Of a stretch of DNA of 64,000 nt, positions 18,720 through 51,505 are shown piece by piece. The notes under the pieces are model-generated. The model saw only the letters and a list, made by a program, of their open reading frames with translations. It did no database searches and had not been told where the DNA came from. The DNA is from Minisyncoccota bacterium. GTDB taxonomy: Bacteria; Patescibacteriota; Minisyncoccia; Phycocordibacterales; UBA1550. The translations under genes were made by a program, and so were the position numbers. The stretch's first letter is position 1; every line of letters begins with the position of its first letter. Where the stretch lies: NCBI GenBank assembly GCA_023229865.1, contig JALNYL010000002.1, forward strand, positions 27,577 through 91,576, written 5' to 3'.

Positions 18720-18778
18720 AAAAAAGTGGAAAGACCAGTCTCATTGAGGGGCTGGTCTTTCTGTTTAAAATAGATCTT

Positions 18779-30157: not shown

Positions 30158-30207
30158 TTCTTTAATTATTTCACACTATAGCACCATTAACAACCATTTT
30201 CTCAAAA

Positions 30208-31158: not shown

Positions 31159-31238
31159 TCTTAAAGAATACCACAGGAAGATAATTTTGTACTTGTGCAA
31201 AACTTCACTAGGCAAAAAGTTGGCAGGGGAGTATACTT

Positions 31239-33284
31239 TTGGGTATGGACTTACAAAATTTTTTACAAGATGAAAGAAAGAAGAAGATTTTAATTATTAG
31301 CGGAATTGTATTGTTTGTTGTTTTAGGTTCAATTTTTATTTTTAGTCGAAATAATCCTGCCCCCGTGGACACGACAGGAGATGGACAAACTCAGCTTTTG
31401 GACGACCTCGCAGGGATTGCACCAAGAGATGGGGTTGCTCAGGACCAAAATCGTCTCGTCGCACCACTTGTTAAGGTTTCAGCGGATGTCCCCGTCGTTG
31501 CCCCAGGACAGCCTTCTGTGATTTCTTGGAATGCAACCAACGCGACAAGCTGTGTCGACGGCAGTGGTAATGCTATCCGCACAAGTGGTAGTCTCTCTAT
31601 CACTCCTACAGAAAACTACACCATGGATGTGGTTTGCACCAACCCAAAGGGTACAACCATTGAGTCTATTACGGTTGCTGTTACAACGACACCCATCATT
31701 ACCCTCAGCGCATCTCCCGAATCAGTTCTTGCAGGAGAGCAATCTTTCATCTCGTGGAACACCGTCAACACCACTCGCTGCACCGACAGTGCAGGAAAAA
31801 CACTTCGTTTGAGCGGCGGTATGCCCGTTGTGATTTCAAAGCCTTACACCTTTGAAATTAACTGTTCTGGCCCAAATGGCACCGACAAGAAATCGATAAC
31901 GGTGGGAATTTCTACGGTAAAGACCACTGAAAGCGAGCTTAAATATGTCTGGGTATTTAAATCAAAAGCAACGGCGACAAGCGCCTCAAAAACGTCCACG
32001 TTCCAGACAAGCGCTGGCTGCCAATCTGCATATGAAAATTCGACCGCATACTCAAAAACAGCTTGTACAAAGGTTCCCGTTGGCACAGCTGGGTCGACCA
32101 CAGTAAACGATAGCAACTCCGGAGGAACAGTAGGAGGAGAAGAGATTCTTGTCTGTATCACCCTCAACCAAACCCTTGAGCTAAACTCAACGGACGCCAA
32201 CGCAAACGGCGAAGTAACGGTTCTCCAGAAATTCCTTAATCGCAAAGGGTTCTTGAGTGCCGCACCATCAGGAAATTTTGGAAGTCTCACCGAAGACGCG
32301 GTTAAGCAATTCCAGATTTCTGAGGGGATCCCTGCAACTGGCAAAGTTGACGCAGAAACAAAAGTTAAAATCAAAAGCGTAAGCTGTGCAGACGCCGAAG
32401 CCGCGGCAAAAAAACTCGCGGACGAAATTAACGCAGGGAAAAAAGAAAATGAAACTACAACCGTAGGAGAAGGAACTCTTGGCCCAAAAATTAAACTCAC
32501 AATGTCTCCTGACACCATTGGTTTTGGACAGACAGCAGTGCTCACCTGGGAAATTGCTGACGCAGTGAGCTGTATTGTAAAACCGCTAGGAGGCAGCGCA
32601 ATTGCTGTTGTCGCCGGGAAAACGAGAGTTCTCGAAGAAGGGAAAGCATTTGCGATTCCTGACGACACAGGATTTTCTGGATCATATAGCCTGAAATTGA
32701 ACGGGGCAGATCTTAGTGTTAAGTTTGAATTTAAATGTAGTGGAGCTGGAATCACCGCAACCAACCAGAAAACTCTTTATTGGGATACGGCATCTGCTTC
32801 TTTTACAGAAGCAGCAACAATAGACGATCTTGAAGCAAGTCCTACAGCCATCGCAGAAGCTGCAATAGGAGCAGAATCCGAAGTAAGTTGGACCGCCTAC
32901 AACGCAACGAGTTGTAAAGTTAGTGGCGATGCTTACACAAGAATCCTCACCGATAGTGGCGAGTGGAAATCTCTTAAGGGCCTTGCTTCAGCAGCACCAA
33001 CAACAGGAGTAGTGCGTATTAAGCCAGGATTTGAAGGTTCTCAGGTGCCATACCACTCAGAGCAGGTCACTACAACATGTCCACCATATAGTGGTGACGG
33101 AGGAGATTACTGTATTCCAACAACAAGCACCGTGACATCAGGTGACGGCGCGCGTAAGGGCAACGAGACAGCAGTGGTTACGGTCTCATGTACGGGACCT
33201 ATTAAACCAGATCCAAAACCAAAGTCTGTGGCGATAACCATTACTCCAACCCCTCCTCCTTCTGGCGGTGGTGGAGGTTGGTAA
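31239..33284 (+). CDS. Large cell-surface protein with repeated Ig-like domains and a central peptidoglycan-binding domain
   Basis: TM anchor near the N-terminus. At least three repeats of SxISWNxxNATxC..G. PG-binding-like GEVTVLQKFLNRKGF..EDAVKQFQISEGIPATGKVD. C-terminal PPPSGGGGGW. Terminator at 33298-33338. Confidence 0.55.
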   Translation: MGMDLQNFLQDERKKKILIISGIVLFVVLGSIFIFSRNNPAPVDTTGDGQTQLLDDLAGIAPRDGVAQDQNRLVAPLVKVSADVPVVAPGQPSVISWNATNATSCVDGSGNAIRTSGSLSITPTENYTMDVVCTNPKGTTIESITVAVTTTPIITLSASPESVLAGEQSFISWNTVNTTRCTDSAGKTLRLSGGMPVVISKPYTFEINCSGPNGTDKKSITVGISTVKTTESELKYVWVFKSKATATSASKTSTFQTSAGCQSAYENSTAYSKTACTKVPVGTAGSTTVNDSNSGGTVGGEEILVCITLNQTLELNSTDANANGEVTVLQKFLNRKGFLSAAPSGNFGSLTEDAVKQFQISEGIPATGKVDAETKVKIKSVSCADAEAAAKKLADEINAGKKENETTTVGEGTLGPKIKLTMSPDTIGFGQTAVLTWEIADAVSCIVKPLGGSAIAVVAGKTRVLEEGKAFAIPDDTGFSGSYSLKLNGADLSVKFEFKCSGAGITATNQKTLYWDTASASFTEAATIDDLEASPTAIAEAAIGAESEVSWTAYNATSCKVSGDAYTRILTDSGEWKSLKGLASAAPTTGVVRIKPGFEGSQVPYHSEQVTTTCPPYSGDGGDYCIPTTSTVTSGDGARKGNETAVVTVSCTGPIKPDPKPKSVAITITPTPPPSGGGGGW

Positions 33285-33368
33285 AATATTAGTTTCCTAA
33301 AGGTCCCCTCGGTATATACCGAGGGGACCTTTATTTTCACTCATAACAATGTGGTAAACTGAAACAAT

Positions 33369-34391
33369 ATGAAGAGAAAAATTCTATTCATGAGTTTCAT
33401 GATTTTTGCACTGCTCGTAATCGCAAGCACTCTCTTCGTGTTGCCATCTCGCAACAAAATTAATGTTGTCGAACAAGGAATAAATTATATCGACAGACAC
33501 CAACTAGAAAACGGGCTTATTCCTTACACTTTTTGTTTTGATAAAAAACTCAATGAAAATTGTAAGCAAGGGAGAAATTATTATATAACCGCGTCCACTG
33601 TTTATTCTTTGGATAAAATTAGAAAAAATTATTCAAACGACAAACTAGACGACATCGTTGCAAAAAGTATAGGGTTACTAGGGGTTAATATGCCTCAAAA
33701 TGGTCTCTGGAAGTATGTTCCCATTGATGAGGATGCTGATATTTCAAAAATAGATCCCGACATAGACGACACCGTCTTGATTTCTTTTGTCTTAAACAAA
33801 CACGGATACACAACCAATAATCGTGCCGCCATCAGAAACAATAGGGATGGCAATGGATTATTTTACGAGTGGATCAGAGCCAGCAAAATTAACAATGAAG
33901 TAGACCCCATCGTTAACACAAATGCGGCATTGTACCTAAACGACAAAGAAATAAATCGGGTGATTTGTTCCGCCCTCTCAGGTGCCATAAAGAAAAATGA
34001 GGAATTATCAACTCAATCATATTCTGACAATAATTATGCTTTATATTATGCAATTTCAAGAGCTTACACAGAGGGGATTGACTGTTTTGGTACCGAAAAA
34101 GATTTAATTATCAAAAAAATAACCGCTGATCAACAAAAAACGGGACAGATTGGAGAAAACGAATTTACCACAGCCTTGGCCCTCAACACCCTTCTTCGCT
34201 TTGGACATGGCGACAAAGATTTCTACAACAAATCTTTTAACTACCTATTTAAAGGACAGCAGGAAGACGGAGGATGGGAACTGTATCCCTTTTATTGCGA
34301 AACAAGAGCGATGGTGTGGTGCTCGGGAAGTCGCTCTTACGCAACTGCCGTCGCCCTCGAAGCAATCACTCATTATTATTTCAAAAAATAG
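33369..34391 (+). CDS. Secreted protein with prenyltransferase/terpene-cyclase-like (alpha/alpha toroid, QxxDGGW) repeats; AT-rich
   Basis: Signal/TM FMIFALLVIASTLFVLP. QQEDGGWELYPFY and NRDGNGLFYEW match the Q-x2-DGGW repeat class of PFTB/squalene-cyclase domains. Codon usage is visibly AT-richer than the neighbours. Confidence 0.4.
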   Translation: MKRKILFMSFMIFALLVIASTLFVLPSRNKINVVEQGINYIDRHQLENGLIPYTFCFDKKLNENCKQGRNYYITASTVYSLDKIRKNYSNDKLDDIVAKSIGLLGVNMPQNGLWKYVPIDEDADISKIDPDIDDTVLISFVLNKHGYTTNNRAAIRNNRDGNGLFYEWIRASKINNEVDPIVNTNAALYLNDKEINRVICSALSGAIKKNEELSTQSYSDNNYALYYAISRAYTEGIDCFGTEKDLIIKKITADQQKTGQIGENEFTTALALNTLLRFGHGDKDFYNKSFNYLFKGQQEDGGWELYPFYCETRAMVWCSGSRSYATAVALEAITHYYFKK

Positions 34392-34472
34392 TAATGCCCT
34401 GTGCAAAAAAGCCCTCTATTTACTGTATTTTAAATATATTCTCTGGTACAATAAATACGAGGACTGCATATT

Positions 34473-35252
34473 ATGAACCCACTAGCCTGGCAATTTAAAA
34501 AAATTTTTTCTGTTCTGTTTGCAATCCTCGTTGGGCTAGGCATTATTTTCTTTGCGTGGAAAAGCACCGTTGCTCTCCCTGCAGAAAACACCCCAGAAAG
34601 TGAGGGGGGTGAGTGGAGAGATTCTCTAAGTGTCGTCCCTCAGGCGAGCTCAACAAAAACACTCGGGGCAGCAACACGGGGGGCTGAAGCAACGACGACA
34701 ACAGGGATCATCGCCCGCGAGCTCATGACAAACTATCTCGTCGCTCAAGACGGCACACCGTCCACAATGAGCGACGAGGATGCAGAACTTTTTGCACAAA
34801 AAGTTCTGGATAAAGGCACGCCAAGTTCTTCAATAAAAGAGTATACTCAAAAAGATTTTGTAGTCGTAGGGGCAAGCACCTCGACAGTTTCGCTTTATCA
34901 AAAAGAAATATCTCAAGCGATGAACACTCTTATGAAAGAGAATTCATTCAATGAGCTCCTCGTTGTTTCTAAGGCTATCGAAACAGGGGACCCCTCGGGG
35001 CTCAAGTCTTTAGACGGGGCAATCTCTAGCTATCAAAAACTCCTCAGGTCGCTTCTTTCTATAAAAGTTCCTCAAACATCGATTGCGCTTCATGTATACG
35101 TCACTCAGAGTTATGCGACGATTCTTTCTGGGGTTATTGATATGCAGAAAATTATTTCTGACCCCGTTATTGGGCTGCAGGGAATCGCAAAATACAACAA
35201 AGGAGTAGATATGCTTTCCCAAAGCAAAACACCATCTTCAACTATTAAATAA
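34473..35252 (+). CDS. Hypothetical membrane-anchored protein
   Basis: 259 aa. N-terminal TM helix then a soluble domain. Directly abuts the next ORF (stop at 35252, ATG at 35253). Confidence 0.45.
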   Translation: MNPLAWQFKKIFSVLFAILVGLGIIFFAWKSTVALPAENTPESEGGEWRDSLSVVPQASSTKTLGAATRGAEATTTTGIIARELMTNYLVAQDGTPSTMSDEDAELFAQKVLDKGTPSSSIKEYTQKDFVVVGASTSTVSLYQKEISQAMNTLMKENSFNELLVVSKAIETGDPSGLKSLDGAISSYQKLLRSLLSIKVPQTSIALHVYVTQSYATILSGVIDMQKIISDPVIGLQGIAKYNKGVDMLSQSKTPSSTIK

Positions 35253-36350
35253 TTGACTTGTATGAACTATCACAAAAAAAACAAAGCGCTCGCATTTCTC
35301 CTCCTTTTTTCACTTTTAAGTAGCTCTCTTTTTGTTCCTCAAGGTACCCGCGCAGCGACAACCTCTGGTTCTGCTTCGATTGACTGTGCAGAAGTAACAA
35401 CACTTGGGACAGAGATTCAAACAGTCGTCCAGGAGTGGGTAGCAGCAGCAGCGACAGAGATGGGAGCAAACGTAACATCTGTTCCTGTCCAAAACCCAGG
35501 GGCTGATACTTCAACAGCAGAAACCGCAGGGCAGACGACAGGCGAAACGACATGGCAGACGACAATAAAGGGCTTTTTAGATTGTGTTGTTTATAAAGCT
35601 GGGCAAATTGCTCTCGACAAACTCACCGATCAAACTATTACTTGGATCAAGGGGGGGATGAACGGGTCTCCTTATTACGCAATCGACCCTGCCCAATTTG
35701 AGCAAGACCTTATTGGTGCAGTTGCAGGCAATCTCTCTGCTCAAATCCGAGGACTTGAGCTTTGCGAATTCGACACAATGTTCAAAAACGACCTTGCCAA
35801 CTGGCTCGTCGTAGGGTCAACGGGGAACGCTGATTTAAAGTTTCAAAAAACCGTTGCCTGCCCATTTAAACAAATTAATGCTTCAGAGTTTTATAGTGGA
35901 GCGCAGGCCTTTACTTGGCAATACTTCGAGACGGCTCTCAATGATAGTGGTAATCCATTTGGAGTTTCCGTAGTTGCACAAAATGAATACACCAAGCAAC
36001 AAGCAGCGGAAGCAGCAAGGGCAAAACAACAACTTGATTGGGGCCAGGGATTCTTGAGTGTTGTAGACACAAGCGACTGTCAGTGGCCAGACGACATGAC
36101 AGAACAAGCGGTGGTGAATGGCGCCTCGTACAACGACGAGGGGGCAACACTTTCTGAGACAGAAATCGCCGCATATCAGCGAGCGTACTGCAAAAAAGTC
36201 ACCCCCGCACAACTCATCCAGAGCCAACTCACCAAATCAACAGAGAGTGAGTGGGATCGCCTTGGTTTTGCTGACAACCTCAACAAGATCATTAGTGCCT
36301 TTGTTACAAAAGTTTCTAATGACGCCGTAAAAGGTATTTTCAAAAAGTAA
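35253..36350 (+). CDS. Hypothetical secreted protein (T4SS-like cluster)
   Basis: 365 aa. Signal peptide ALAFLLLFSLLSSSLFVPQGTRA. Cys-containing soluble protein. 8-nt gap to the VirB6-like gene. Confidence 0.45.
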   Translation: MTCMNYHKKNKALAFLLLFSLLSSSLFVPQGTRAATTSGSASIDCAEVTTLGTEIQTVVQEWVAAAATEMGANVTSVPVQNPGADTSTAETAGQTTGETTWQTTIKGFLDCVVYKAGQIALDKLTDQTITWIKGGMNGSPYYAIDPAQFEQDLIGAVAGNLSAQIRGLELCEFDTMFKNDLANWLVVGSTGNADLKFQKTVACPFKQINASEFYSGAQAFTWQYFETALNDSGNPFGVSVVAQNEYTKQQAAEAARAKQQLDWGQGFLSVVDTSDCQWPDDMTEQAVVNGASYNDEGATLSETEIAAYQRAYCKKVTPAQLIQSQLTKSTESEWDRLGFADNLNKIISAFVTKVSNDAVKGIFKK

Positions 36351-36358
36351 TCACATAA

Positions 36359-38548
36359 ATGCATAATCTCTTCCCAAAACTTACAGCAATTCTCTTCGGG
36401 GCTGTTTTCTTGCTGGGAGGGGCGTCGATGGCGGGAGCTCAAGAGGCTTCCGTTATCTACTTTTATAAATTCAAAACAAACTCCGCAGAGAGCACTCCTT
36501 TCCAGTTTAAAGATTTTTCCACAGCAGCAGATTGTAATACCTCTCGAAGCACTGCCCCAACCTACGGACTATCCCCTTGTGTAGGGACCACAGTCGCGGG
36601 ACTTAACGCATTAAAACAAGCCGAGCAACAAAGAATGTCGTCTCTTGAAGCACGCGCTCGAAGTGCTGAAGAGAACGCTCTTTTTAAGAAGCTCAATTGT
36701 AACCCTGTTGGATCAATCATTGGGGGAGTTTTTGGTGGCGAAGGAACTCTTGCTGAGTGTGTCCCTGTTGTTACTTATTATGTAATCTACAAACCTGCCT
36801 CATGGCTCCTTATAGGTTCTGGTTTTATTTTTGACGCGATGCTTACATTGAGTATCGATAGCTCGTTTGTTAATCAAGAGTTTGTAGTAAGCACATGGAG
36901 TGTGGTGCGTGATTTCTCAAACATGCTCTTCATCTTCATCCTCCTTTATACAGGAGTGCAAACAGTCCTGGGAATAGGGAATTGGAGAAAGACAGTGCTT
37001 ATGGTCATCGTGATGGCACTCCTTATCAACTTCAGCCTCTTCTTTACTAAGGTTGTTATCGATGCGGGTAATGTGCTTGCGGTGGGAATATACAACAGCA
37101 TGGGAACTGAAAAGCCAACTGAGTTTCAGAGCTTTCAGAGCCCAGGGAAGGTCCACGAGCGTGACATTTCAGGTAGCCTTGCGGGGGCATTCCACCCAGA
37201 AAAATTCTTAAAGGTCTCAGGTGATGTCGATGCTCTTGATGCCACTATCGTATTCCTCATCGCAGCAATCGTCAGCGGTTACGCAGGATACATCTTTTTT
37301 AAAGCAGCACTCCTTTTTATTGGGCGTCTCGTAGCCTTTTGGTTCTTAATGATTGTCTCTCCGTTTGCATTTATTTCTATTGCCCTCCCCGCGGGAGCAA
37401 ACAAGTTCCAATCATGGCTTGACGAGCTGATTAGCCAAGCATTTATGGCGCCCGTATTCCTCTTCCTTATTTACCTCATTATGAAAGTCATTAGTGCGGG
37501 AGACGGCATCCTTGGGGCTCTTGTAAAACAGTCTGGCTCGAGCGTGGGAGCGTTTACTTTTGACAAAGTTCTTGCGCCCGTGATTATCGCCGCGATTCTT
37601 ATGTTCGCCCTTGAGCAAGCTTTTGGGTTTGCTAAAAAAATGTCAGGTGCCTTTGGTGAGTTTGGCTCAAGTCTCGGCGGGGCAGTAATGGGAATTGCAG
37701 GAGCAGGTCTTGTAGGGGGAGCAGCACGAGCTGGTCGCGTAGCTATTGGGGGGACAGCGCAGAGAATTTTGGATAGTGATAGACTTCAGGGCTTAGCGGC
37801 AAGTAAAAACACTTGGGCGCGCGCAACAGGAATCACCACCCTCGCACAAGGAGGAGTTCTTGCTGCAAACAAAGCAAAAGATGCTACTTACGATGTTCGC
37901 AATATCGGCGGAGCTATTGGAAAGGGAATCGGGACACTTGGAATGGGTAAGGGCGGGAAACTAAACTACGAAAAAGAAGAGGAGGCTTTTGTAAAAGAGC
38001 AGAAAAAACGCGCCGCAATGTTTGAGGTTGGTTCAGGGGCTGCACAAAAGGTCACCGTAGAAAAAACAAAAGAAACAGTCAAAGAAACTAAAGAGACTGT
38101 TAAAGAGCTCAAGGAGGTGAGAACGAAGGCGTCCGAAGAACTCAAGAAGGCAACCACAAAAGACACTGAGATGCGTAGCTCGGGGACATTTGACGAGGGG
38201 GTAAAGAGGGTTCTCGACGAGGCGAAGAGAAAGGACAAAGAAGCACAAGAGAGGCTTGAAGAGGCAGAGAAGAAAGCAGTTGAGGCAGAGCTTGCCGAAA
38301 AAGAAGCTTCCAAGGTTCTCAACACTGAGGATGAGCGCCGTCGAGGAGTACAGGGGAAGCAGGCTGCATTCTTCCATAAGCCATTCTCATCAGAAGAGAG
38401 AAAGAAGATTCGCGCAAAGATTCGCGAAGGAAAAACTTCAAAAGAAAAGGATGATGAAGACATAGCAAAAACACTCAAAAAGCTTGCGGAAAAGCTTCCA
38501 AAGGACGAAAAGGAGAAGGAAGAAAAGAAGGAAACTAGCGGACACTAA
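36359..38548 (+). CDS. VirB6/TrbL-like polytopic membrane protein with long charged coiled-coil C-terminus
   Basis: 729 aa. Signal peptide, ~130-aa periplasmic region, then 5-6 TM helices with large hydrophobic blocks (MLFIFILLYTGVQTVLGIG.., IVFLIAAIVSGYAGYIFFKAALLFIG..). C-terminal ~200 aa is K/E-rich coiled coil. Confidence 0.45.
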   Translation: MHNLFPKLTAILFGAVFLLGGASMAGAQEASVIYFYKFKTNSAESTPFQFKDFSTAADCNTSRSTAPTYGLSPCVGTTVAGLNALKQAEQQRMSSLEARARSAEENALFKKLNCNPVGSIIGGVFGGEGTLAECVPVVTYYVIYKPASWLLIGSGFIFDAMLTLSIDSSFVNQEFVVSTWSVVRDFSNMLFIFILLYTGVQTVLGIGNWRKTVLMVIVMALLINFSLFFTKVVIDAGNVLAVGIYNSMGTEKPTEFQSFQSPGKVHERDISGSLAGAFHPEKFLKVSGDVDALDATIVFLIAAIVSGYAGYIFFKAALLFIGRLVAFWFLMIVSPFAFISIALPAGANKFQSWLDELISQAFMAPVFLFLIYLIMKVISAGDGILGALVKQSGSSVGAFTFDKVLAPVIIAAILMFALEQAFGFAKKMSGAFGEFGSSLGGAVMGIAGAGLVGGAARAGRVAIGGTAQRILDSDRLQGLAASKNTWARATGITTLAQGGVLAANKAKDATYDVRNIGGAIGKGIGTLGMGKGGKLNYEKEEEAFVKEQKKRAAMFEVGSGAAQKVTVEKTKETVKETKETVKELKEVRTKASEELKKATTKDTEMRSSGTFDEGVKRVLDEAKRKDKEAQERLEEAEKKAVEAELAEKEASKVLNTEDERRRGVQGKQAAFFHKPFSSEERKKIRAKIREGKTSKEKDDEDIAKTLKKLAEKLPKDEKEKEEKKETSGH

Positions 38549-38555
38549 TTAAAAA

Positions 38556-39386
38556 ATGAACGAAGAAATTCAAAAAATCATTGAGGAACAACTCCCGAAA
38601 CTCCCAAAAGAAGTTGTGACTTTTTTGTCGTCAGCAAGTTGGGACGAGCACATACTGGAGATCAGCACGCTTTATAATCTCCCTGAAGATGAAGTAGCGA
38701 GTCTTAAAAATGAAGTAATTTTTGTTCTTATTGGACTAACGCCCCCTGATGAATTCAAAGAGATTCTTAGTGAGGAGACAGCTCTTCGAGGCTCTGTCCT
38801 TGATGCAGTCGTTTCTGCGGTGGAGAATAAAATCTTTGCTCCCGTTCGCCCCGCTCTTGCTGTGTTTTTTGAACAAGAAGCAGCACTTGCTACTGAATTC
38901 CCAGAAGAAGTATCTTTGGGGGTCGCAAAGGAGGCGACAGGAGAGGAGCCCCTTGCGGCACAAGGAGAGATAGTAGAAACACCGCAGGAAGCAGGGACTC
39001 TTCAGCTCGCGCCAACAACGGAGGAGATTATTCCTGCTCCATCAGTAGAAAAATTTACTTCACCCTTCTCCGCCATTATCCAACCAACACAAGTAAGAAC
39101 ATGGGAGAAAACCCCTGAGGTCGTCCCTGACAATCTTCCTACTGAGGACGCCGCGGAATCATTCTTGCCAAACCTTACCCCAAAAACTGTTGCGCAAACA
39201 GAAACTACTACAACCGCAGAACCAGAAGGGCACCCCTTTGAAGAAAAGATGAAGAAAGTATTTACCGCAGGACAGCAGTCGATGGGAGAGCTCGCTATTG
39301 AGCAAACAGTGCCGGCCACAAGCACCCCAGAGCGAAATGCTCCCCCCATTTATCACACAGACCCCTACCGCGAACCAATCGAATAG
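38556..39386 (+). CDS. Hypothetical acidic protein (T4SS-like cluster)
   Basis: 276 aa. E/P/T-rich, low complexity in the C-terminal half. Confidence 0.4.
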   Translation: MNEEIQKIIEEQLPKLPKEVVTFLSSASWDEHILEISTLYNLPEDEVASLKNEVIFVLIGLTPPDEFKEILSEETALRGSVLDAVVSAVENKIFAPVRPALAVFFEQEAALATEFPEEVSLGVAKEATGEEPLAAQGEIVETPQEAGTLQLAPTTEEIIPAPSVEKFTSPFSAIIQPTQVRTWEKTPEVVPDNLPTEDAAESFLPNLTPKTVAQTETTTTAEPEGHPFEEKMKKVFTAGQQSMGELAIEQTVPATSTPERNAPPIYHTDPYREPIE

Positions 39387-39444
39387 AACATTAAAAAGAA
39401 AAGGCCCTCATCACTGAGGGCCTTTGAGTTGTGTTTCGTTTCGA

Positions 39445-40197
39445 TTACTTCGCCGGAGATACAGCCGGAACGCCAGAAGCGGCGGCTGCATTCAGCTTGT
39501 CCATTGCGGGCACGAGCTTATTGAAGCCATCGGCGAACTCGGTTGCAATCACTTGCATGGAGATGTTTTTGCTGATCTCCCCCGACAAAACGTCAGGGGT
39601 ATCCACCGCCATGAGTGCAACGCCGAGATTGGTGTCGTCGCTCTTGGCCTGTCCGAGGACAGAAGCAATGGACTCGCCGGTCTCCATATCAACAACAGAC
39701 AGCGTAACCATAGCCTCAGTGAAACGCAGGTCATGCATCCCCCTCGACATTTCTTTTTGGGCGAGGAGTCCACCGAAAAGTGGGATTCGGCGGACGGCGC
39801 CAGCGGTTACAGCATTGTAGCTGTTCCCGATGACGGGTTGTGCCATTTCCATTTTCAGCTTGAATTTAACGCCGGCAGTGCCCGGTTCAACGAGAGTAAA
39901 GCAACCAGCCTGTTTTACCGCGTGACGGACAGTCACATCCACCATCGGGAAAGGGAGGCCGACACGGTTGAACATGAACGACAGCGATTTCGAAGAATTG
40001 TCCTCGAGAACCGCGCGGCCGTAGTTCTTGGCGCACTTGGAGAGCGCCGAAGCTGCTGGCTTCGCTGCTTCGGGAGCGGATGCCGCCGAAGGTGTTGCCG
40101 AGGTGCTGTTCACCAGATCGGTGATGTCAGCAGATGCGGAACCAACGAACAGAACGAACAGAAACAGGATCGAAACGAGATTTTGAATGAACTTCAT
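39445..40197 (-). CDS. Secreted protein (CsgG/LpoB-like fold suspected); GC-rich, opposite strand inside the T4SS-like cluster
   Basis: 250 aa. Clear signal peptide MKFIQNLVSILFLFVLFVGSASA. By eye the gene looks substantially more GC-rich than the window average. The overlapping plus-strand 269-aa ORF is an R/C-rich antisense artefact. Confidence 0.5.
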   Translation of the reverse strand: MKFIQNLVSILFLFVLFVGSASADITDLVNSTSATPSAASAPEAAKPAASALSKCAKNYGRAVLEDNSSKSLSFMFNRVGLPFPMVDVTVRHAVKQAGCFTLVEPGTAGVKFKLKMEMAQPVIGNSYNAVTAGAVRRIPLFGGLLAQKEMSRGMHDLRFTEAMVTLSVVDMETGESIASVLGQAKSDDTNLGVALMAVDTPDVLSGEISKNISMQVIATEFADGFNKLVPAMDKLNAAAASGVPAVSPAK

Positions 40198-40367
40198 GAT
40201 TGCTCTCCTTGTCTACGGTTGAGTTTCAAATGAGAAGAATAATGCTTTTCCCAAGTAACAGCATAGCAGATATTAAAATTTTGTCAACCCCCTAAATTAG
40301 TTCAATATTTTAAACAATAGAGTATAATACTCATACAGAAGGACGTATTTCCCAATATTCTACCCTC

Positions 40368-40829
40368 ATGCAATTTCACATCCCCCAGTACATCGATATC
40401 GAGGACAAGCTCTTTGGTCCACTTACTCTTAAGCAGGCGATTTATTTAGCTGGTGGCGCAGGTGGTATTTATTTGTTCTACCGCATTATCCCCTATATGT
40501 TTATCAAAGCGCCAATTATTTTGGCGATTGCGGTCCTCACGTGGGCACTCGCATTTTTCCCAAAAGAAAAACTAGGGAAACCATTTATCGATGTTCTTGA
40601 AGCAGCCTTTGCTTATATGCTCAAGGACAAGCTCTACACGTGGAAAAAAACAACGAAAGAGGCTGGTGCAAAAAAAGAAGAAGACTTTTTACCTTCTGTT
40701 CCAATAGCGACCCCTTCGGTCTCTGTGGGGAAACTCTCTAGCGCTTCGTTTGATCTCGACGTTCGCGGAGCCCAAAAAGGAGTGGAGGAACAAGACAAAA
40801 CGGGGAAAGATAGTGATATACTAAAGTAA
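40368..40829 (+). CDS. PrgI/VirB3-like small membrane protein
   Basis: 153 aa. DKLFGPLTLKQAIYLAGGAGGIYLFY resembles the PrgI-family fGpLTxrQ signature, followed by two TM helices. Confidence 0.45.
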   Translation: MQFHIPQYIDIEDKLFGPLTLKQAIYLAGGAGGIYLFYRIIPYMFIKAPIILAIAVLTWALAFFPKEKLGKPFIDVLEAAFAYMLKDKLYTWKKTTKEAGAKKEEDFLPSVPIATPSVSVGKLSSASFDLDVRGAQKGVEEQDKTGKDSDILK

Positions 40830-40833
40830 TACC

Positions 40834-41487
40834 ATGGCAGTTAAATCAAAAGCAGCACAAGATTTTGTTCCCATTAAAGAAATCCGCGACGGTGTCGTGA
40901 TTTTAAAAGACGGAACCATCCGTATGCTTCTTATGGCATCTTCGGTCAACCTCGCCCTCAAGTCTTCAGATGAGCAACAGGCGGTTTTGATGCAGTTCCA
41001 AAGTTTTTTGAACTCCCTAGAATTTTCAACTCAGGTATTTATCCAATCACGCCGTCTCGACATTCGCCCCTACCTTATTCTTCTTGAAGAGCGCCTCCAT
41101 GAGGAAGTCAACGATCTTCTTAAAATTCAGATTCGCGAATATATGGGCTTCGTAAAAACCATTGCTCAGTCCACCAATATTATGAGCAAGCTCTTTATTA
41201 TTGTTGTTCCTTACGCGCCACCAAAATCAGTTACGAGCTCTTCGTCATCAAGTGGGGGATTTAGCCTCTTTGGAGGGAAGAAGGACACAAGCAGCACTCC
41301 ATCGCAAAGCGCCGTCGAGGCTTTTGAGGAGGCACGCACACAGCTCGAGCAGCGCGCAGGTATTATCAGTCAAGGGCTCGCGCGCACGGGGGTTCGCGTG
41401 GTTCCCCTTGGTACTGAGGAGCTCACCGAGCTTTACTATCGCCTATTCAACCCAGGAGAGGTAGAGAAGAAGGTCGACGTAAGATAA
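40834..41487 (+). CDS. VirB4/TrbE-family ATPase, N-terminal domain fragment (separate ORF)
   Basis: 217 aa. AQDFVPIKEIRDGVVILKDGTIRMLLMASSVNL is the characteristic N-terminus of Gram-positive-type VirB4/TcpF/PrgJ ATPases. It ends 14 nt before, and in a different frame from, the ATPase ORF. Confidence 0.6.
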   Translation: MAVKSKAAQDFVPIKEIRDGVVILKDGTIRMLLMASSVNLALKSSDEQQAVLMQFQSFLNSLEFSTQVFIQSRRLDIRPYLILLEERLHEEVNDLLKIQIREYMGFVKTIAQSTNIMSKLFIIVVPYAPPKSVTSSSSSSGGFSLFGGKKDTSSTPSQSAVEAFEEARTQLEQRAGIISQGLARTGVRVVPLGTEELTELYYRLFNPGEVEKKVDVR

Positions 41488-41500
41488 CAAAACTATTTTT

Positions 41501-43342
41501 ATGATTAATTTTTTTGGAAACAAACAACCAACAACTACAGAGGCAGAAAAAAATTCTGTCCCCGTACTCCCTCAAGACCTTTACGCTGATACAGGCCTCA
41601 ACCTCGCTGATGTTATTGCTCCTTCTGCCGTAAAAATAGAATCCAAAGAACTCATCCTGGGAGAAAAGGTTGTGCGCTCATTTTTCATCACCTCATATCC
41701 AAGCGTTGTCACCGACAACTGGCTTTCTCCGCTCATCAACCTCGACAAAGTTTTTGATATTGCGATTTATATCCACCCTGTCGACACAGCAGACATAATG
41801 AAGAAGTTTGAAAAGAAGGTTGCTGAGGTTCAAAGCCAGATCAATGTCCGCGAAAGTAAGGGTTTTGTCCGTGACCCAATGCTCGAGTCAGCATATCGCG
41901 ATCTCGAAGAGCTTCGTGATCGTCTCCAGCAAGCGCAGGAAAAAATGTTTGACGTAGGACTTTATATAACCCTTTACGCTGACAGTGAGGAGGAGCTCAA
42001 TCATGCCGAAGCAGAGATCAAGTCAATGCTCGAGTCACGTCTTATCTACATTCGCCCAGCACTCTTTCAACAAGAAGAAGCTTTTCAAAGTATTATTCCG
42101 GTCAACAGTGACAAGATCGCGGTCACAAAAAAGATTAACTCGGAGCCACTCTCGAGCTTCTTCCCGTTTGTGTCATTCGACCTCACATCAGACAAAGGGA
42201 TTCTCTATGGTATCAACCGTCACAACTCTTCGCTTGTTCTCTTCGACCGCTTCTCTCTCGAGAACTACAATTCGGTTACTTTTGCGAAGTCTGGTTCTGG
42301 TAAATCATTTGCAACAAAGCTCGAAATTTTGCGTAGTTTGATGTTTGATATCGATGTCATCGTTATCGACCCAGAGCGTGAATATGAGTCAATGGCCGAA
42401 GCAGTGGGTGGCCGTTATTTCAATATTTCTCTCAACTCCGAACACCACATCAACCCATTTGACCTTCCTGTTCCTCGCGAAGATGAATCTCCTGCGGATG
42501 TTCTTCGTGCAAACATCATTTCTCTTGTTGGACTCTTCCGTATCATGCTTTCAGGACTCAGCCCGGAGGAGGATGCTATCGTCGACCGCGCGATCTCAGA
42601 AACATACGCACTTAAAGACATTACTCCTGACTCAGACTTCTCTGCGATAGAGCCACCACTTCTCTCTGACTTTGAAATGGTGCTTTCAGGAATGGAGGGA
42701 GCAGAAGGTATTCTTACTAAGCTCACCAAATACACCCGCGGATCATGGGCAGGATTCATCAATAATCCTTCAAACGTCGACATCAACCGTAAATTCATCG
42801 TCTTCTCAGTGCGCGACATGGAAGACGACTTGAAGCCTGTGGCAATGTACCTCGTGACACACTTTATTTGGAACGCAGTGCGTCGCACACTCAGAAAGCG
42901 TCTCCTTGTGGTGGATGAGGCTTGGTGGATGATGAAGTCCGAAGACACGGCCGCCTTCCTCTATGCGCTCGCAAAACGTGGCCGTAAATACTACCTCGGA
43001 ATCGCGACGATCACCCAGGACGTAAACGACTTCTTGAAATCCCCATACGGCTTGCCAATTATGACCAACTCGTCAATTCAGATTCTTCTTAAGCAGTCGC
43101 CGACATCAATCGATGCCGTCCAAAAAGCTTTCAACCTTACTGACGAGGAGAAATTCTTGCTTCTTGAGTCAGGAGTAGGGGAGGGCATCTTCTTTGCCGG
43201 AATGAAGCACGTGGCTATCCGTTCTATTGCTTCCTACACCGAGGAACAAATCATCACCTCAGACCCAGGGCAGATCCTCGCTATCAAAAAAGCAAAGCGC
43301 GAACTCGCGGAAGCAGAAGCATCAGGAGGGGGAAGTATCTAA
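41501..43342 (+). CDS. VirB4/TrbE/CagE-family type IV secretion ATPase (ATPase domain)
   Basis: 613 aa. Walker A FAKSGSGKSF. Walker B LLVVDEAWWM. C-terminal GIATITQDV..TNSSIQILLKQS motif block typical of VirB4. Confidence 0.8.
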   Translation: MINFFGNKQPTTTEAEKNSVPVLPQDLYADTGLNLADVIAPSAVKIESKELILGEKVVRSFFITSYPSVVTDNWLSPLINLDKVFDIAIYIHPVDTADIMKKFEKKVAEVQSQINVRESKGFVRDPMLESAYRDLEELRDRLQQAQEKMFDVGLYITLYADSEEELNHAEAEIKSMLESRLIYIRPALFQQEEAFQSIIPVNSDKIAVTKKINSEPLSSFFPFVSFDLTSDKGILYGINRHNSSLVLFDRFSLENYNSVTFAKSGSGKSFATKLEILRSLMFDIDVIVIDPEREYESMAEAVGGRYFNISLNSEHHINPFDLPVPREDESPADVLRANIISLVGLFRIMLSGLSPEEDAIVDRAISETYALKDITPDSDFSAIEPPLLSDFEMVLSGMEGAEGILTKLTKYTRGSWAGFINNPSNVDINRKFIVFSVRDMEDDLKPVAMYLVTHFIWNAVRRTLRKRLLVVDEAWWMMKSEDTAAFLYALAKRGRKYYLGIATITQDVNDFLKSPYGLPIMTNSSIQILLKQSPTSIDAVQKAFNLTDEEKFLLLESGVGEGIFFAGMKHVAIRSIASYTEEQIITSDPGQILAIKKAKRELAEAEASGGGSI

Positions 43343-43412
43343 AAACAAAAGTCCACAAAAAGATCCTTCTTTTTGTGGACTTTTGCTGAATATTCGCGGT
43401 ATAATAAAATAT

Positions 43413-44534
43413 ATGTATCAAAGGCAGACACTACTCCTTGGTGCTCTTGTAAGCATTTTTTGTGTGCCTCTTTTTGTTTTTGCACAGACATCAACGACAA
43501 CAGCGGAACAACCAAACGCAAGTGATGCATTTCAACAAAAAATCAACGAGCTTATTCAGCGACAACTCGACGCTGCTCCAACAGCAGAAGAAATTCTCAT
43601 AAAAGCAGTTGCCGACAACCTTGAAGTAAAAACGGTTCCATCAAAACCAAGCCCCAACGAATCTGTAAAAGTGTCTATCCAAAGCTATCTCATTGATCTC
43701 AATAAAGCATCAATTGTGTGGACCCTCAATGGGAAAGTGGCACTAAGTGGTGTCGGAGAAAAAGTATTTACATTCACCACGGGGAACAGTGGAGAAACAA
43801 CGACACTTCTTGTTTCCATGACGGCGAACACAGGGGAGGTAATAACTAAAGAATTTTCTTGGACCCCTGTTGGGGTTACTCTCTTTTGGGAAGCGGACAC
43901 ATACACCCCTCCTTTTTATAAAGGGAAGCCACTTCTTTCCTACGAGGCAAAAGTAACGGTTATAGCAACCCCCGACAACACAGACTCAAAAAATGCACTC
44001 AGTGCAGGAAATCTTGTTTACACTTGGAAGAAAAAAGGGATGACAGACGCCAGTGTTTCTGGGTATGGGAAAAATTCATTTTCTTTTACAGGACCAAGAC
44101 CATTCAGCACAACCAATGCTAGTGTCTTGGTATCCTCTGTTGATGATGCAATTAATTCTGAAGCAAAGGTTAATCTTTCTCTTTCAACCCCCTTTATTCT
44201 TTTTTACGAAAATCATCCACTCTTAGGGACTCTTTACAATAAACCATTTGGAAAAGGAATGAGTCTCTCAAGTAAGGAGCTTTCGATAAGCGCTGCTCCT
44301 TACTTCTTCTCAAAAGAGCCGGCAACAACACAAACAATGCAATATAACTGGACAACAAACGGAAGACCTGTTCAGAACGAAGGAAAAAACATTACGCTTC
44401 GTAACGAAAAAGGAGAGGTTGGGTCTGCCGAAGTTTCTCTGTCAGTAAGGGGTCTCCGCCAAACTTTCCAAACAGCTAGTCAAAACCTTCGCATTGATTT
44501 TACAGAAGACACGTCAAATAAGCCTTTATTTTAA
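43413..44534 (+). CDS. Hypothetical secreted protein (T4SS-like cluster)
   Basis: Signal peptide MYQRQTLLLGALVSIFCVPLFVFAQ. Beta-rich S/T-rich body. The start is taken at the ATG at 43413. Confidence 0.45.
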   Translation: MYQRQTLLLGALVSIFCVPLFVFAQTSTTTAEQPNASDAFQQKINELIQRQLDAAPTAEEILIKAVADNLEVKTVPSKPSPNESVKVSIQSYLIDLNKASIVWTLNGKVALSGVGEKVFTFTTGNSGETTTLLVSMTANTGEVITKEFSWTPVGVTLFWEADTYTPPFYKGKPLLSYEAKVTVIATPDNTDSKNALSAGNLVYTWKKKGMTDASVSGYGKNSFSFTGPRPFSTTNASVLVSSVDDAINSEAKVNLSLSTPFILFYENHPLLGTLYNKPFGKGMSLSSKELSISAAPYFFSKEPATTQTMQYNWTTNGRPVQNEGKNITLRNEKGEVGSAEVSLSVRGLRQTFQTASQNLRIDFTEDTSNKPLF

Positions 44535-44537
44535 ATT

Positions 44538-45557
44538 ATGAAAAAATACTTTTTACCAGCGGTCGTCTCTTTCTTTCTCCTCTTTTCAGTAGGGGTGCTC
44601 TCTGCGTACGCTCAAGTAGAGGCAAACTACACCCCCCTCGCCCCCCTGCCAGGAACAACAATTCAGAGTGGTGACGGAGCTGGCACAACAAACATCTCAA
44701 CGTACGTTGCAGGAATGATCAAGCTCCTTGTTGCTCTCGGAGCGGCGCTTGCCGTCCTCTTTGCGATTATTGGTGGGACGCAGTATGTCGCCGCAAGTAT
44801 CAACCCCGCAGCAAAGGCTGGAGCACTTGAGCGCATCCAAAACTCTCTTGTTGGCTTGGCAATTATTCTCTCTTCGTATCTTGTTTTAAACTCTATCAAC
44901 CCAGACTTAGTAAACTTTAAACTTGAACTTCCCCCTGTTACGGTACGACATGAGGTAAATGTTACCGCAGGAGGTTCAACAATAGATGATGCTGGGTGCC
45001 CCACCATCACCACCCCTTCTGTTCTTTTAAATTCGACAGAGTCTCAACAACTAGAATCTGGAGCAACGGTTGTTTTCACGGCAAGCGATGCAACTGCAGA
45101 CGTACAGGCCAACCTACAAACACTGCAAGGGGAATCAAATAAACTAATCCTTGCCCTCCCACAACTTAACTCTGGGATAAAGGCCACCGTTACCTCTGCA
45201 TACCGCCCATATGTATATCAAAAACATTTGTATGAAATATATGACACATGGGTCAAAAAAGATCTAAAAAACAACACCAACCCGGCCTGCGCCGCAAACA
45301 AAACCTTCGTTGGGGCCGAATCAACAAAACACTTTGGCCCTAATGGTCCCGGACTCGTTGCGAACCCAGACGGACAAATCGCTCCTCACACAAAAGGCAC
45401 AGGGATCGATATTAAATTAGAGGGGATTGAGTATGGGAATTTTACGGCTTATGGGTACGCTGATATTAACGATTTTATGGTCCACAACGGTATTTATCTC
45501 AGCTGGCAAGGTCTCCAGAATGACAAGGTTCACTTTAACTTGAGAAGTAGGCCATAA
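44538..45557 (+). CDS. Putative VirB2/TrbC-like pilin-domain protein with C-terminal extension
   Basis: Signal peptide then two hydrophobic helices separated by a short loop (MIKLLVALGAALAVLFAIIGGTQYV / LVGLAIILSSYLVLNSINP), as in T4SS pilins. Followed by a ~200-aa soluble domain. Confidence 0.3.
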   Translation: MKKYFLPAVVSFFLLFSVGVLSAYAQVEANYTPLAPLPGTTIQSGDGAGTTNISTYVAGMIKLLVALGAALAVLFAIIGGTQYVAASINPAAKAGALERIQNSLVGLAIILSSYLVLNSINPDLVNFKLELPPVTVRHEVNVTAGGSTIDDAGCPTITTPSVLLNSTESQQLESGATVVFTASDATADVQANLQTLQGESNKLILALPQLNSGIKATVTSAYRPYVYQKHLYEIYDTWVKKDLKNNTNPACAANKTFVGAESTKHFGPNGPGLVANPDGQIAPHTKGTGIDIKLEGIEYGNFTAYGYADINDFMVHNGIYLSWQGLQNDKVHFNLRSRP

Positions 45558-45566
45558 CCAAAAACA

Positions 45567-46943
45567 ATGAGCAAACGAAATTTAATAATTATCACAGTTG
45601 TCATTCTCTCTCTTCTTGGAGGAGGAGCTTACTGGTACTACTCTCAAAAAGGCGCTCTTCCTGGAGGTGATATATTATTTCCAGGAGGAAGTGGTACCCG
45701 AACGGATGGGGGAGGTACGACCACAGAGCAGCCAACAGACGAAGATACCTTTACTCCAGGAGTAGACACGAGACTTCCTCGCCTCTACCAGCTCCACATC
45801 ACTCCCACTTCTGGTGTTGGCTTTTTTGAAGCAAAAGACAAAAAGGGTGTCGTAACCAACAGAACCGTGCGCTATGTCGAACGTGGACTTGGACACATTT
45901 TTGAAACACAGCTTTCTACTTATGTTGAATCACGTATTGTAAACGAAACTCGCCCTCGCATTTCAGAAGCACTCTGGGGAAACAGTGGAAACAGTGTGGT
46001 TTTTCGATTCCTTGATACAACGGAAGGGGCGACAATAAAGACACGCATCATAAACCTTTCGTCTCCTTTTGCAACTTCTTCGTCAGAATTTTTAACAACG
46101 GAAGAGCTTTACCTTCCTGACTCGATTCCTTTTATGGCGACAGCAGAGGATGGAACCAACGGATTGTTCTACCTCGCTGAAAAAGACGGGACTTTCACAA
46201 CGTTCCAAAACCTTAACGCCTCAAAAATATTTAACTCTGTATTTACTGAGTGGCTCCCCCAGTTCCCAAGCCAAAAACTTGTAACGCTCACTTCACGACC
46301 ATCTGAAAAAGTTCCTGGGCACATGTTCTTCCTTGACCCAAAAACAAAAGCGGTGACAAAGATTCTTGGCAACATTAACGGCCTCACCACGCTCACAAGC
46401 CACGATGGAAAATTTGTTCTTGCTTCCGAATCAAGAAATGGGGCACCAGAACTTTCAGTGTACGACGTTACCAAGAAAACAATGCTTCCTATTTATTTGC
46501 GCGGTCTCCCTGAGAAGTGCGTATGGGGGACAAAGAACCCAACATTAGTGTACTGCGGGGTCCCCGAGGCGCTTACAAACGCTAGTTACCCAGATCAGTG
46601 GTACCAAGGGGTTGTCTCTTTTTCTGACTCACTCTGGGAGATCAACGCGGAAACTCTTGCTGTTCGCAAAGTTTTCACTCCAAAAGATTTCAAAGCCCCT
46701 GCTCTTGATATGACCAATCTCTCCCTTTCTTCGGATGATGCGTATCTTGTGTTTATCAACAAACTAACGAGCACGCCATGGGTGTACAGTATCGTTGAAC
46801 CACTTCCACCACCTACTCCTATCACTGTTCCCGTGGCGGGAACAAGCACTCCAGTAGGGAGCACCTCGACATTGACAGGAACAACCACAAGGGCTGCAGT
46901 TCCTCCTTCAGTAGTAACCTCCGACATGCAGAAGCTCAAGTAG
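45567..46943 (+). CDS. Hypothetical membrane-anchored secreted protein (beta-propeller-like?)
   Basis: 458 aa. N-terminal TM IIITVVILSLLGGGAYWYY. G/T-rich linker. C-terminal T/P/S-rich tail. Confidence 0.4.
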   Translation: MSKRNLIIITVVILSLLGGGAYWYYSQKGALPGGDILFPGGSGTRTDGGGTTTEQPTDEDTFTPGVDTRLPRLYQLHITPTSGVGFFEAKDKKGVVTNRTVRYVERGLGHIFETQLSTYVESRIVNETRPRISEALWGNSGNSVVFRFLDTTEGATIKTRIINLSSPFATSSSEFLTTEELYLPDSIPFMATAEDGTNGLFYLAEKDGTFTTFQNLNASKIFNSVFTEWLPQFPSQKLVTLTSRPSEKVPGHMFFLDPKTKAVTKILGNINGLTTLTSHDGKFVLASESRNGAPELSVYDVTKKTMLPIYLRGLPEKCVWGTKNPTLVYCGVPEALTNASYPDQWYQGVVSFSDSLWEINAETLAVRKVFTPKDFKAPALDMTNLSLSSDDAYLVFINKLTSTPWVYSIVEPLPPPTPITVPVAGTSTPVGSTSTLTGTTTRAAVPPSVVTSDMQKLK

Positions 46944-50143: not shown

Positions 50144-50399
50144 TTTATTATTTTAAACCCTGTGTACTACTTGTGGATAAATTTAAAAACGAGTGTGAAT
50201 AAATCCTCATAACATTTATAAAAAACATTATGAAAAAAGTTTATAAACAATTCCAAAAAAGTTATCCACAGAAATTGATAATGGATGTAGTTAAAATAAG
50301 TAGTAAACAAAAGGAAATTAAAGAGTTATCCACTTATCCACATCTATAGTATTAAAAATAAGTATTTATATAAATAATAATAAACACCTTTAAAAGAAT
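50144..50399. promoter_or_regulatory. Putative oriC (dnaA-dnaN intergenic): DnaA-box cluster plus AT-rich unwinding element
   Basis: TGTGGATAA at 50173 (reverse-complement TTATCCACA). GTTATCCACA at 50263. Tandem GTTATCCACTTATCCACA at ~50328. Followed by a highly AT-rich stretch atagtattaaaaataagtatttatataaataataataaacacc. Additional boxes lie upstream of dnaA (TGTCCACAAGTTATCCACA at ~48683). Confidence 0.65.
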
Positions 50400-51500: not shown

Positions 51501-51505
51501 ACATT

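Follow-up and report, generated by a model that had tools for sequence, protein, structure and literature searches.

A probable Paceibacteria form of the type IV secretion system specific to Patescibacteria, with a predicted peptidase domain on its pilin-like protein

A large part of bacterial diversity belongs to the Patescibacteria, and the way in which they draw resources from their hosts is an open question. The T4SS (type IV secretion system) is among the few machines known to be essential for patescibacterial epibiotic growth. In Southlakia epibionticum, a Gram-positive-like T4SS with pilins, without a relaxase or a coupling protein, was demonstrated to be essential for such growth (Wang et al. 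2023, PMC10633639), and its genes, SEML1_0006-0019, encode in this order a VirB6-like protein, an NTF2-like protein, a protein of ~1,000 amino acids (aa), PrgI, a 293-aa open reading frame (ORF), and a 612-aa VirB4 (PMC10633639). Quinonero-Coronel et al. 2025 recorded VirB4 in 2,417 of 3,035 Patescibacteria genomes and placed most of these proteins in a monophyletic clade nested in MPF-FATA; TrsD was the commonest partner of VirB4, PrgI/VirB3, VirB6, and VirB2-like pilins were encoded nearby, a relaxase was found in almost none, and the neighbors of the Paceibacteria systems were dnaA, dnaN, rnpA, ksgA, and rpmH (PMC12102498). The role of the Patescibacteria T4SS has been termed 'completely unknown' in the literature (PMC11665869); the same perspective article suggests uptake, and effector delivery or uptake was proposed in other articles. 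Here, we describe a gene cluster at positions 35253-46943 of a 64,000-nucleotide stretch of the chromosome of a Minisyncoccota bacterium (contig JALNYL010000002.1, positions 27,577 to 91,576; hereafter the window).

We are highly confident that this locus is the Paceibacteria version of the Patescibacteria-specific T4SS, and nearly as confident that the system is non-conjugative. The explanation favored as a whole, a machine derived from MPF-FATA, proximal to the origin, vertically inherited, and uncoupled from DNA conjugation, is given a probability of roughly 0.6. A CD1110-type VirB4, a TrsD-like protein, PrgI, and (at the level of homologues) a PF18895 pilin are encoded on the chromosome near dnaA, dnaN, rnpA, and ksgA, and the window locus fits an already published system class as one of its typical representatives in Paceibacteria. 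An earlier note on this DNA, made from the sequence alone, had read the cluster as a chromosomal T4SS-like envelope apparatus of a candidate phyla radiation (CPR) bacterium situated by the origin, and as no conventional conjugative element. This reading was borne out by family searches, structure prediction, and synteny in about 80 species. The same note had described such systems as merely proposed and uncharacterized, which does not match the record: for a Saccharibacterium in culture a homologous cluster is essential (PMC10633639), and a detailed survey of the class appeared in 2025 (PMC12102498). The genes that carry the assignment are the following.

36359-38548, plus strand: probable extended VirB6/TrbL-like polytopic membrane protein, 729 aa (homologues and predicted structure)
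40368-40829, plus strand: PrgI/VirB3-like small membrane protein (PF12666, E 3e-9, 37.7 bits, cutoff 27)
40834-41487, plus strand: TrsD/TraC-like detached VirB4 N-terminal domain, 217 aa (NCBIfam TrsD, 1.2e-6)
41501-43342, plus strand: VirB4 ATPase, middle and C-terminal P-loop domains (NCBIfam CD1110, 3.1e-111, 372.9 bits, cutoff 325)
44538-45557, plus strand: VirB2-like pilin fused to a putative VanY/LAS-type zinc peptidase domain, 339 aa (profiles, AlphaFold2 (AF2), Foldseek)

With the Patescibacteria-clade T4SS, for which the system of S. epibionticum is the experimental representative, the locus has in common the order VirB6-like ... PrgI, TrsD-like, ~610-aa VirB4, the split of VirB4, PF18895 pilins in the cluster, a neighborhood without relaxase or coupling protein, and the chromosomal site by dnaA, dnaN, rnpA, and ksgA. 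It differs in its lone pilin gene, where the others have arrays of 2-11, and in the VanY-like fusion. An NTF2/VirB8-like protein was not recognized, and the class-specific accessory families, here designated S, P, A, and acidic, are different. Essentiality is known for the Saccharibacterium system only.

The ATPase ORF at 41501 spans positions 180-733 of the CD1110 VirB4 model, carries the Walker A (AKSGSGKS) and Walker B (LLVVDE) motifs, and matches the Pfam families P-loop_TraG (1.1e-25) and CagE_TrbE_VirB. The preceding ORF 40834 covers positions 2-118 of the same model, and PF26593 TraC-like is recorded for its homologues. In the blastp alignments with the full-length VirB4 of the Clostridium botulinum plasmid pCDC3875, ORF 40834 aligned with residues 24-197 (E 3e-8) and ORF 41501 with residues 210-757 (E 6e-87). 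VirB4 is split into a TrsD-like and an ATPase ORF, as the alignments reveal directly, and the 217-aa ORF is the split-off N-terminal domain and not an independent unknown. To follow gene order, one genome per GTDB species was scanned; at least 590 relatives were found and 80 loci fetched, and the synteny counts, which require an unchanged order and strand, rest on the 42 loci whose 10-kb flanks were complete. The split is natural, since the VirB4 homologues among the matches listed (74-100% identical) are mostly of ~610 aa and a separate TrsD-like ORF lies 5' of virB4 in 42 of 42 loci. PrgI, presumed to be the membrane tether of VirB4, is encoded immediately 5' of the TrsD-VirB4 pair, also in all 42.

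An exact-sequence look-up with the window VirB4 was without a match, but in the homologue search a 'Candidatus Pacebacteria' metagenome-assembled genome contributed a protein 100% identical to it, and many Yonathbacteria proteins were 90-96% identical; among the best 120 homologues listed (74-100% identical), those with a source name come almost all from Patescibacteria. Plasmid VirB4s, from monoderm plasmids or hosts, are at most 37% identical to it. The core order VirB6-like, PrgI, VirB4, putative cell-wall hydrolase is that of the MPF-FATA conjugative T4SSs of monoderm bacteria (pCF10 Prg/Pcf, pGO1 Trs, and CTn2 CD1110-CD1115), with which the locus also shares a CD1110 family VirB4 and, in the pGO1 subclass, a separate TrsD-type N-domain. 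On pCDC3875, the genes run VirD4, hypothetical, VirB6, PrgI, hypothetical, VirB4, hypothetical, SLT hydrolase; the window locus corresponds to the pCDC3875 backbone minus the coupling protein. Unlike these systems, it has a VirB4 only ~31% identical to that of pCDC3875, lacks VirD4 and a relaxase, is chromosomal and vertically inherited, encodes a VirB6-like protein with an extra ~280-aa helical tail, and carries its putative hydrolase on a pilin-like hairpin and not on a large separate SLT/CHAP protein. The T4SS of Mycoplasma integrative and conjugative elements (ICEs), with the pilin-like Mbov_0395 and the VirB4 Mbov_0397, resembles the window in its wall-less/monoderm setting and in a small VirB2-like pilin beside VirB4. 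Those systems, however, reside on mobile ICEs with conjugation functions, and the window proteins score below the curated cutoffs (for the ICE-type model VirB4_plasma, a sub-threshold match of 8.5e-81).

The position of the cluster is fixed in the relatives. Besides PrgI and TrsD (42 loci each), the VirB6-like, S, and P genes were present in 41 of the 42 loci each and the pilin in 30; the flanking yidC, dnaA, and dnaN were present in 39 each and ksgA in 32. The layout was the same in the closed 808-kb genome CP064958.1. The housekeeping flanks (ksgA upstream at 28923; yidC and rnpA, both on the minus strand, dnaA, and dnaN downstream) had been read correctly before, and synteny placed the cluster at a fixed chromosomal site in the relatives, with 39-42 of 42 for most core genes, not on a mobile element.

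These data bear on whether the locus could be a conjugative element, either an ICE or integrated plasmid or its decaying remnant. All recognizable parts descend from conjugation machinery, and the nearest non-CPR relatives are the plasmid-borne CD1110-family VirB4s. Nevertheless, about 40 species, the closed genome among them, agree in chromosomal position, order, and strand; none of the ORFs is broken, and conservation is higher for VirB4 than for DnaA. Searches of Pfam, NCBIfam, and PHROGs detected neither relaxase nor VirD4 nor VirB11 in the cluster or in the 64-kb window, and VirD4/TcpA and an integrase were likewise absent from the cluster and its surroundings, in agreement with what had been noted from the letters. 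The sole recombinase in the window is a XerC/D-type tyrosine recombinase with a SAM-like N-domain at 14363-15349 (minus strand), 20 kb off and not adjacent to a tRNA gene. No tRNA gene lies near the cluster (the nearest is 25 kb away), the direct-repeat check gave no att-like repeats around it, its GC content equals that of the flanks, and no relatives were found in the search of viral and mobile contigs. The mobile-element reading was rejected because VirD4, relaxase, and VirB11 were not found in the 64-kb window, nor tRNA genes or att-like repeats near the cluster, nor relatives in viral contigs, and plasmid VirB4s are at most 37% identical; we regard it as very nearly negligible.

A missing relaxase and coupling protein would also be accounted for by a machine that imports DNA or nucleotides, like Helicobacter ComB or archaeal Ced, and feeds a bacterium unable to make nucleotides. 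Both of these systems are T4SS-derived, serve import, and do without a relaxase or coupling protein. For such a role speak the weak matches of VirB4 to the CedB and CedD models, the failure to find a relaxase or coupling protein in the window, the presence of comM 20 kb upstream, and the uptake suggested in the perspective article (PMC11665869). The scores were, however, 41.7 bits for CedB (cutoff 700) and 14.4 for CedD (cutoff 600), whereas the conjugative-type CD1110 model was passed; the partner families specific to ComB or Ced were not detected in Pfam and NCBIfam, and the similarity is limited to the shared ATPase fold. According to a review, transformation of S. epibionticum needs comEC, and comEC is dispensable while the T4SS is essential (PMC12857230). 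An import machine therefore seems to us rather improbable.

The assignments of ORFs 36359, 40368, and 44538 to VirB6, PrgI, and pilin had been left by the earlier note to profile searches; PrgI came out above its cutoff, and the pilin and VirB6 were recovered at the level of their families, neither window protein itself scoring above a cutoff. ORF 36359 is probably an 'extended VirB6', as judged from homologues and model. In the AF2 model (predicted local distance difference test, pLDDT, 78.7), a bundle of ~6-7 transmembrane helices is accompanied by a signal peptide, a small beta domain, and a long helical tail rich in K and E. Pfam TrbL was matched by 6 of 53 close and 13 of 61 more distant homologues (best E 5.9e-7) and was the sole family matched by more than one of the 61 distant ones. 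The transmembrane core defines a large family (16,476 cluster representatives at E<=1e-3), and a precomputed Pfam domain was present on 0 of 328 homologues of the ORF. Foldseek against the PDB gave 0 matches at E<=1e-3 for the model, and PDB profile searches with the VirB6-like, S, P, A, and acidic families returned only coiled-coil noise or non-significant matches. As a separate observation, 6 of the 53 homologues (alignment A2) also matched Pfam TrbC/VirB2 pilin (best E 0.0011), which may reflect a pilin-like hairpin in some members or transmembrane-helix noise.

ORF 44538 consists of a signal peptide followed by a two-helix hairpin (residues ~50-121), a low-confidence linker, and a peptidase domain (~155-339). 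The hairpin after the signal peptide is present in the AF2 model (overall pLDDT 82.6), in which the C-domain reaches a pLDDT of about 90-96. The best Foldseek match of the C-domain was VanYB (5zhf; probability 1.00, E 4.6e-3), and VanX, VanXY, and Sonic hedgehog, of the same LAS fold, were also retrieved. The sequence contains SAYRP (220-224) with S220-A-Y-R223, H284-x6-D291, and D329-x-x-H332. From what is known of VanX/VanY, we take S220/R223, H284-x6-D291, and D329-x-x-H332 to be the substrate-binding arginine, metal ligands, and general base of the LAS enzymes. The Pfam VanY model gave 14.9 bits, under its cutoff of 25. By its predicted fold, zinc-ligand triad, S-x-x-R, and acidic base, the C-domain is a putative enzyme of the LAS/peptidase M15 group, and VirB4 is not, as had been thought, the sole recognizable enzyme of the cluster, because the pilin ORF bears this domain. 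The topology of the hairpin turns the C-terminus outward.

The pilin part is recognized mainly through relatives. PF18895 was matched by 60 of 75 syntenic pilin homologues (best 2.4e-10) and TrbC by 6; PF18895 is recorded for most homologues of ORF 44538, and PF02557 VanY for several of the closest ones. The NCBIfam Mbov_0395 pilin-like model gave a sub-threshold match (5e-4) to the window protein. Our pilin profile hidden Markov model had 0 matches among the proteins of the pCDC3875 T4SS region. With 339 aa and a ~185-aa enzyme domain after the hairpin, the protein is not a canonical small (~70-120 aa) VirB2/TraA pilin. Like the VirB1-type hydrolases (PrgK, TraG of pIP501, and CwlT of ICEBs1), it would be an extracytoplasmic peptidoglycan-active enzyme encoded just 3' of virB4, and its C-domain shares with the VanY/VanX LAS peptidases the LAS fold and the H-x6-D...H metal-ligand motif. 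It differs from the VirB1-type proteins in being anchored by a T4SS pilin module and in being of the D,D- or L,D-peptidase type instead of SLT plus CHAP; the activity is predicted.

For the pilin slot, 84 loci were counted, i.e., 83 fetched loci (L001-L083) and the window. The slot between the S and P genes held a pilin-domain ORF in 72 of the 84, and exactly one in 68 of these. Pilin-domain ORFs in the loci, the window included, ranged from 124 to 615 aa, and 64 of 76 had an extension of >=80 aa. The recognized extra domains were mostly peptidoglycan enzymes, with the following numbers of members by Pfam.

NlpC/P60: 10
VanY: 6
YkuD: 4
Amidase_5: 3
SLT_2: 2
SLT, Amidase_2, Peptidase_M15_4, and Extensin-like_C: one each

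The 89 extension segments fell into 46 clusters without BLAST similarity to each other. A VanY-like extension occurred in the window and in its closest relative L003 (VirB4 96% identical), a different 'HWH' type in L004 (VirB4 94%) and L008 (86%), and yet another type in L006 (VirB4 90%). To judge from these sequences, the type of pilin-borne hydrolase is exchanged even between relatives with VirB4 86-96% identical. Pilin-hydrolase fusions were not mentioned in the 2025 survey (PMC12102498) or in the other literature searched, which did not cover all journals, and a pilin fused to an exchangeable cell-wall enzyme appears to be the one new, unreported detail of this locus.

Four further proteins of the cluster are secreted, membrane-anchored, or strongly acidic.

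35253-36350, plus strand: secreted acidic A-family protein, signal peptide, isoelectric point (pI) 4.6, likely start ATG 35262
38556-39386, plus strand: acidic cytoplasmic protein, pI 4.3, without signal peptide or transmembrane segment
43413-44534, plus strand: secreted S-family protein, signal peptide, directly 3' of virB4 in 41 of 42 loci
45567-46943, plus strand: P-family extracytoplasmic protein, one N-terminal transmembrane anchor, in 41 of 42 loci

The S family gave weak Ig/PKD/BiPBP_C matches (homologues and PDB), and the S protein is probably built of tandem Ig-like beta-sandwich domains. For the P family, TolB was matched weakly (PDB profile, E 0.011) and 4 of 39 homologues carried PD40 repeats, so that the P protein is possibly a TolB-like beta-propeller. 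For the A-family protein, no relative was found in Pfam, NCBIfam, or PDB; its homologues, ~24% identical and of variable length, occur in 19 of 42 loci. ORF 38556 has a conserved ~100-aa N-domain (homologues in 16 of 42 loci), a variable P/E/T-rich middle, and a conserved C-terminal DPYRE motif, of which D-P-Y-R is nearly invariant in the alignment of its homologues (A9). This architecture looks like a docking-peptide arrangement; Pfam, NCBIfam, and PDB searches gave no relative outside its own lineage. PHROGs and NCBIfam searches with the accessory proteins were without a match. They are nonetheless not, as had been stated, devoid of recognizable homologues: many exist, all within Paceibacteria, with the weak Ig-like and beta-propeller signals just described.

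In comparison with L003, VirB4, TrsD, DnaA, YidC, and DnaN were 87-96% identical and PrgI 82%, whereas the A, VirB6-like, acidic, S, pilin, and P proteins were just 48-62% identical. In these sequence comparisons, the surface components diverge several-fold faster than the motor, and much faster than the genome average. This divergence and the exchange of hydrolases are of importance for the possibility that the T4SS is a housekeeping envelope machine serving the bacterium's own surface, in protein export or assembly or as a pilus, with a hydrolase that remodels its own peptidoglycan and is not directed at a host. The fixed, core-gene-like site by oriC and the very high conservation of VirB4 would fit, as would the PG-binding proteins encoded just upstream of the cluster. 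For their own wall, the T4SSs of Gram-positive bacteria require a VirB1-type hydrolase, for instance the SLT-domain protein encoded 3' of virB4 on pCDC3875. On the other hand, hydrolase type is exchanged at VirB4 identities of 86-96%, the extension segments form 46 unrelated clusters, and the surface components are at 48-62% against 87-96% in the closest relative, a pattern that would suit a variable external target better than the bacterium's own conserved wall. We consider the self-directed machine unlikely.

In the explanation favored here, which draws on established T4SS biology, a hexamer of VirB4, with TrsD to complete it and PrgI as its tether, would power the assembly of a VirB6-based translocon in a single membrane and would also pull pilin subunits out of the membrane. 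The pilin-borne peptidase would cleave peptidoglycan peptide stems where the structure passes a wall, and the Ig-like and propeller-like proteins would form the surface-exposed part that touches the host cell. That the machine acts at the host interface is suggested by the essentiality data from the Saccharibacterium together with the rapid turnover of the surface parts. By analogy, the apparatus may build an envelope-spanning contact or conduit for an epibiotic lifestyle, a role to which we give even odds.

Several observations weigh against this interpretation. ORF 44538 scored 24.1 bits with PF18895 T4SS_pilin, just under the cutoff of 26.6, and the 339-aa pilin-enzyme fusion may be a mere membrane anchor that never polymerizes. 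Pfam and NCBIfam searches gave no direct VirB6 family match for ORF 36359 itself; Foldseek on its model reached probabilities of 0.72-0.91 for several TrwI chains, but at E>0.1, and hhalign of the VirB6-like profiles with a single bona fide CD1112 VirB6 sequence was weak (E 0.7 and 0.013). A VirB8-like (NTF2) protein was not recognized in the cluster. The median identity across the loci was 73% for VirB4, 60% for DnaA, 51% for KsgA, and 47% for YidC, the VirB4 value being inflated relative to its neighbors because the loci were picked by VirB4 similarity. VirD4 or a relaxase could be encoded elsewhere in the genome, beyond the 64-kb window that was covered. Finally, the role at the host interface is extrapolated from a different class, Saccharimonadia.

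The cluster contains ten substantial ORFs, nine on the plus strand (starts at 35253, 36359, 38556, 40368, 40834, 41501, 43413, 44538, and 45567) and one on the minus strand. The earlier note had counted eleven, ten of them co-directional; the positions hold, and the number eleven is reached only if 34473-35252 is included. The gaps across 35253-46943 are, in order, 8, 7, 58, 170, 4, 13, 70, 3, and 9 nt, and those of 58, 170, and 70 nt contradict the statement that all were of 0-15 nt. Three features concern the limits and the transcription of the cluster.

34473-35252, plus strand: possible first gene of the locus in its own lineage, 259 aa, N-terminal membrane anchor
39400-39425, both strands scored: terminator-like hairpin, bidirectional, where the acidic-protein gene and the minus-strand gene converge
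39445-40197, minus strand: secreted protein of 250 aa with signal peptide, specific to the lineage, its gene lying between prgI and that for the acidic protein

The first of these joins the first ORF of the cluster with a 0-nt gap; 15 of 42 related loci have a homologue of it directly 5' of the A-family gene, and a Pfam search with its product was without a match. Overall, the scans for promoters and terminators gave no more than expected by chance, and the hairpin (an 11-bp stem with six G-C pairs; a consensus match only) was the one strong match retained. The hairpin and the opposite-strand gene divide the cluster, which therefore consists of at least two transcription units. For its signal peptide and its L003 homologue, the minus-strand ORF was preferred over the overlapping plus-strand ORF 39424-40233; the latter ORF, Cys/Arg/His-rich and without homologues, was rejected as spurious. 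A homologue of 39445-40197 was found only in L003 (49% identity, same position and strand), Pfam and NCBIfam searches gave no family match, and a 170-nt spacer separates the gene from prgI; it is probably not a core part of the apparatus.

The likely oriC lies in the dnaA-dnaN spacer, as judged from its 20% GC and five DnaA-box-like 9-mers (50172-50342), ~3.2 kb from the end of the cluster. Across the window, DnaA-box-like 9-mers (TTATCCACA, <=1 mismatch) numbered 37, against 12.4 +/- 3.8 in shuffled sequence, and 0 of 100 shuffles reached 37; a small group of them is located at 8712-8741. The region 50400-51800, which comprises all of dnaN and the region 3' of it, is AT-rich (29-36% GC vs. 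about 45% elsewhere). Upstream of the T4SS, a gene block at 29702-35252, absent from most relatives, separates it from ksgA, and because of this extra block the distance from ksgA to virB4 is 12.6 kb vs. a median of 9.3 kb in the relatives. The block holds two PG_binding_1 proteins, at 30208-31215 (minus strand, also with a TIG domain) and 31239-33284, ORF 33369-34391, for which Pfam gave squalene-hopene cyclase C as a weak match under the cutoff, and 34473-35252. Farther upstream, comM (18641-20317) and an M23/LysM peptidase (minus strand, 20420-21595) are grouped with two ORFs, one of 1016 aa (21772-24822) and one of 342 aa (17308-18336), for which a Pfam search gave no match at all. Amid the housekeeping genes yebC, ruvC, and rpsL, 57553-58677 encodes a protein of 374 aa in which Pfam recognizes a phage tail collar domain (PF07484, 1.7e-28). 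The remainder of the window consists of housekeeping genes.

The window locus leaves the overall picture unchanged, being one more example of a class catalogued in thousands of genomes. What it adds is a clean Paceibacteria gene map supported by a closed genome, direct evidence of the VirB4 split, swappable peptidoglycan enzymes in the pilin slot, and surface components that evolve several-fold faster than the motor. The leads for the biology of these bacteria are the swappable pilin-borne wall hydrolase and the contrast of a very conserved motor with a fast-evolving surface; enzyme specificity and a correlation between cargo and host offer testable handles on what the machine touches. As a speculation to which we would assign only a slim chance, the Paceibacteria 'pilin' might be a modular delivery arm, a VirB4-handled hairpin carrying an interchangeable enzyme fitted to the host peptidoglycan, so that a swap of cargo would retarget the epibiont to new hosts and open a feeding conduit. 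If this were true, the pilin gene would be a readable host-range determinant for uncultured CPR bacteria.

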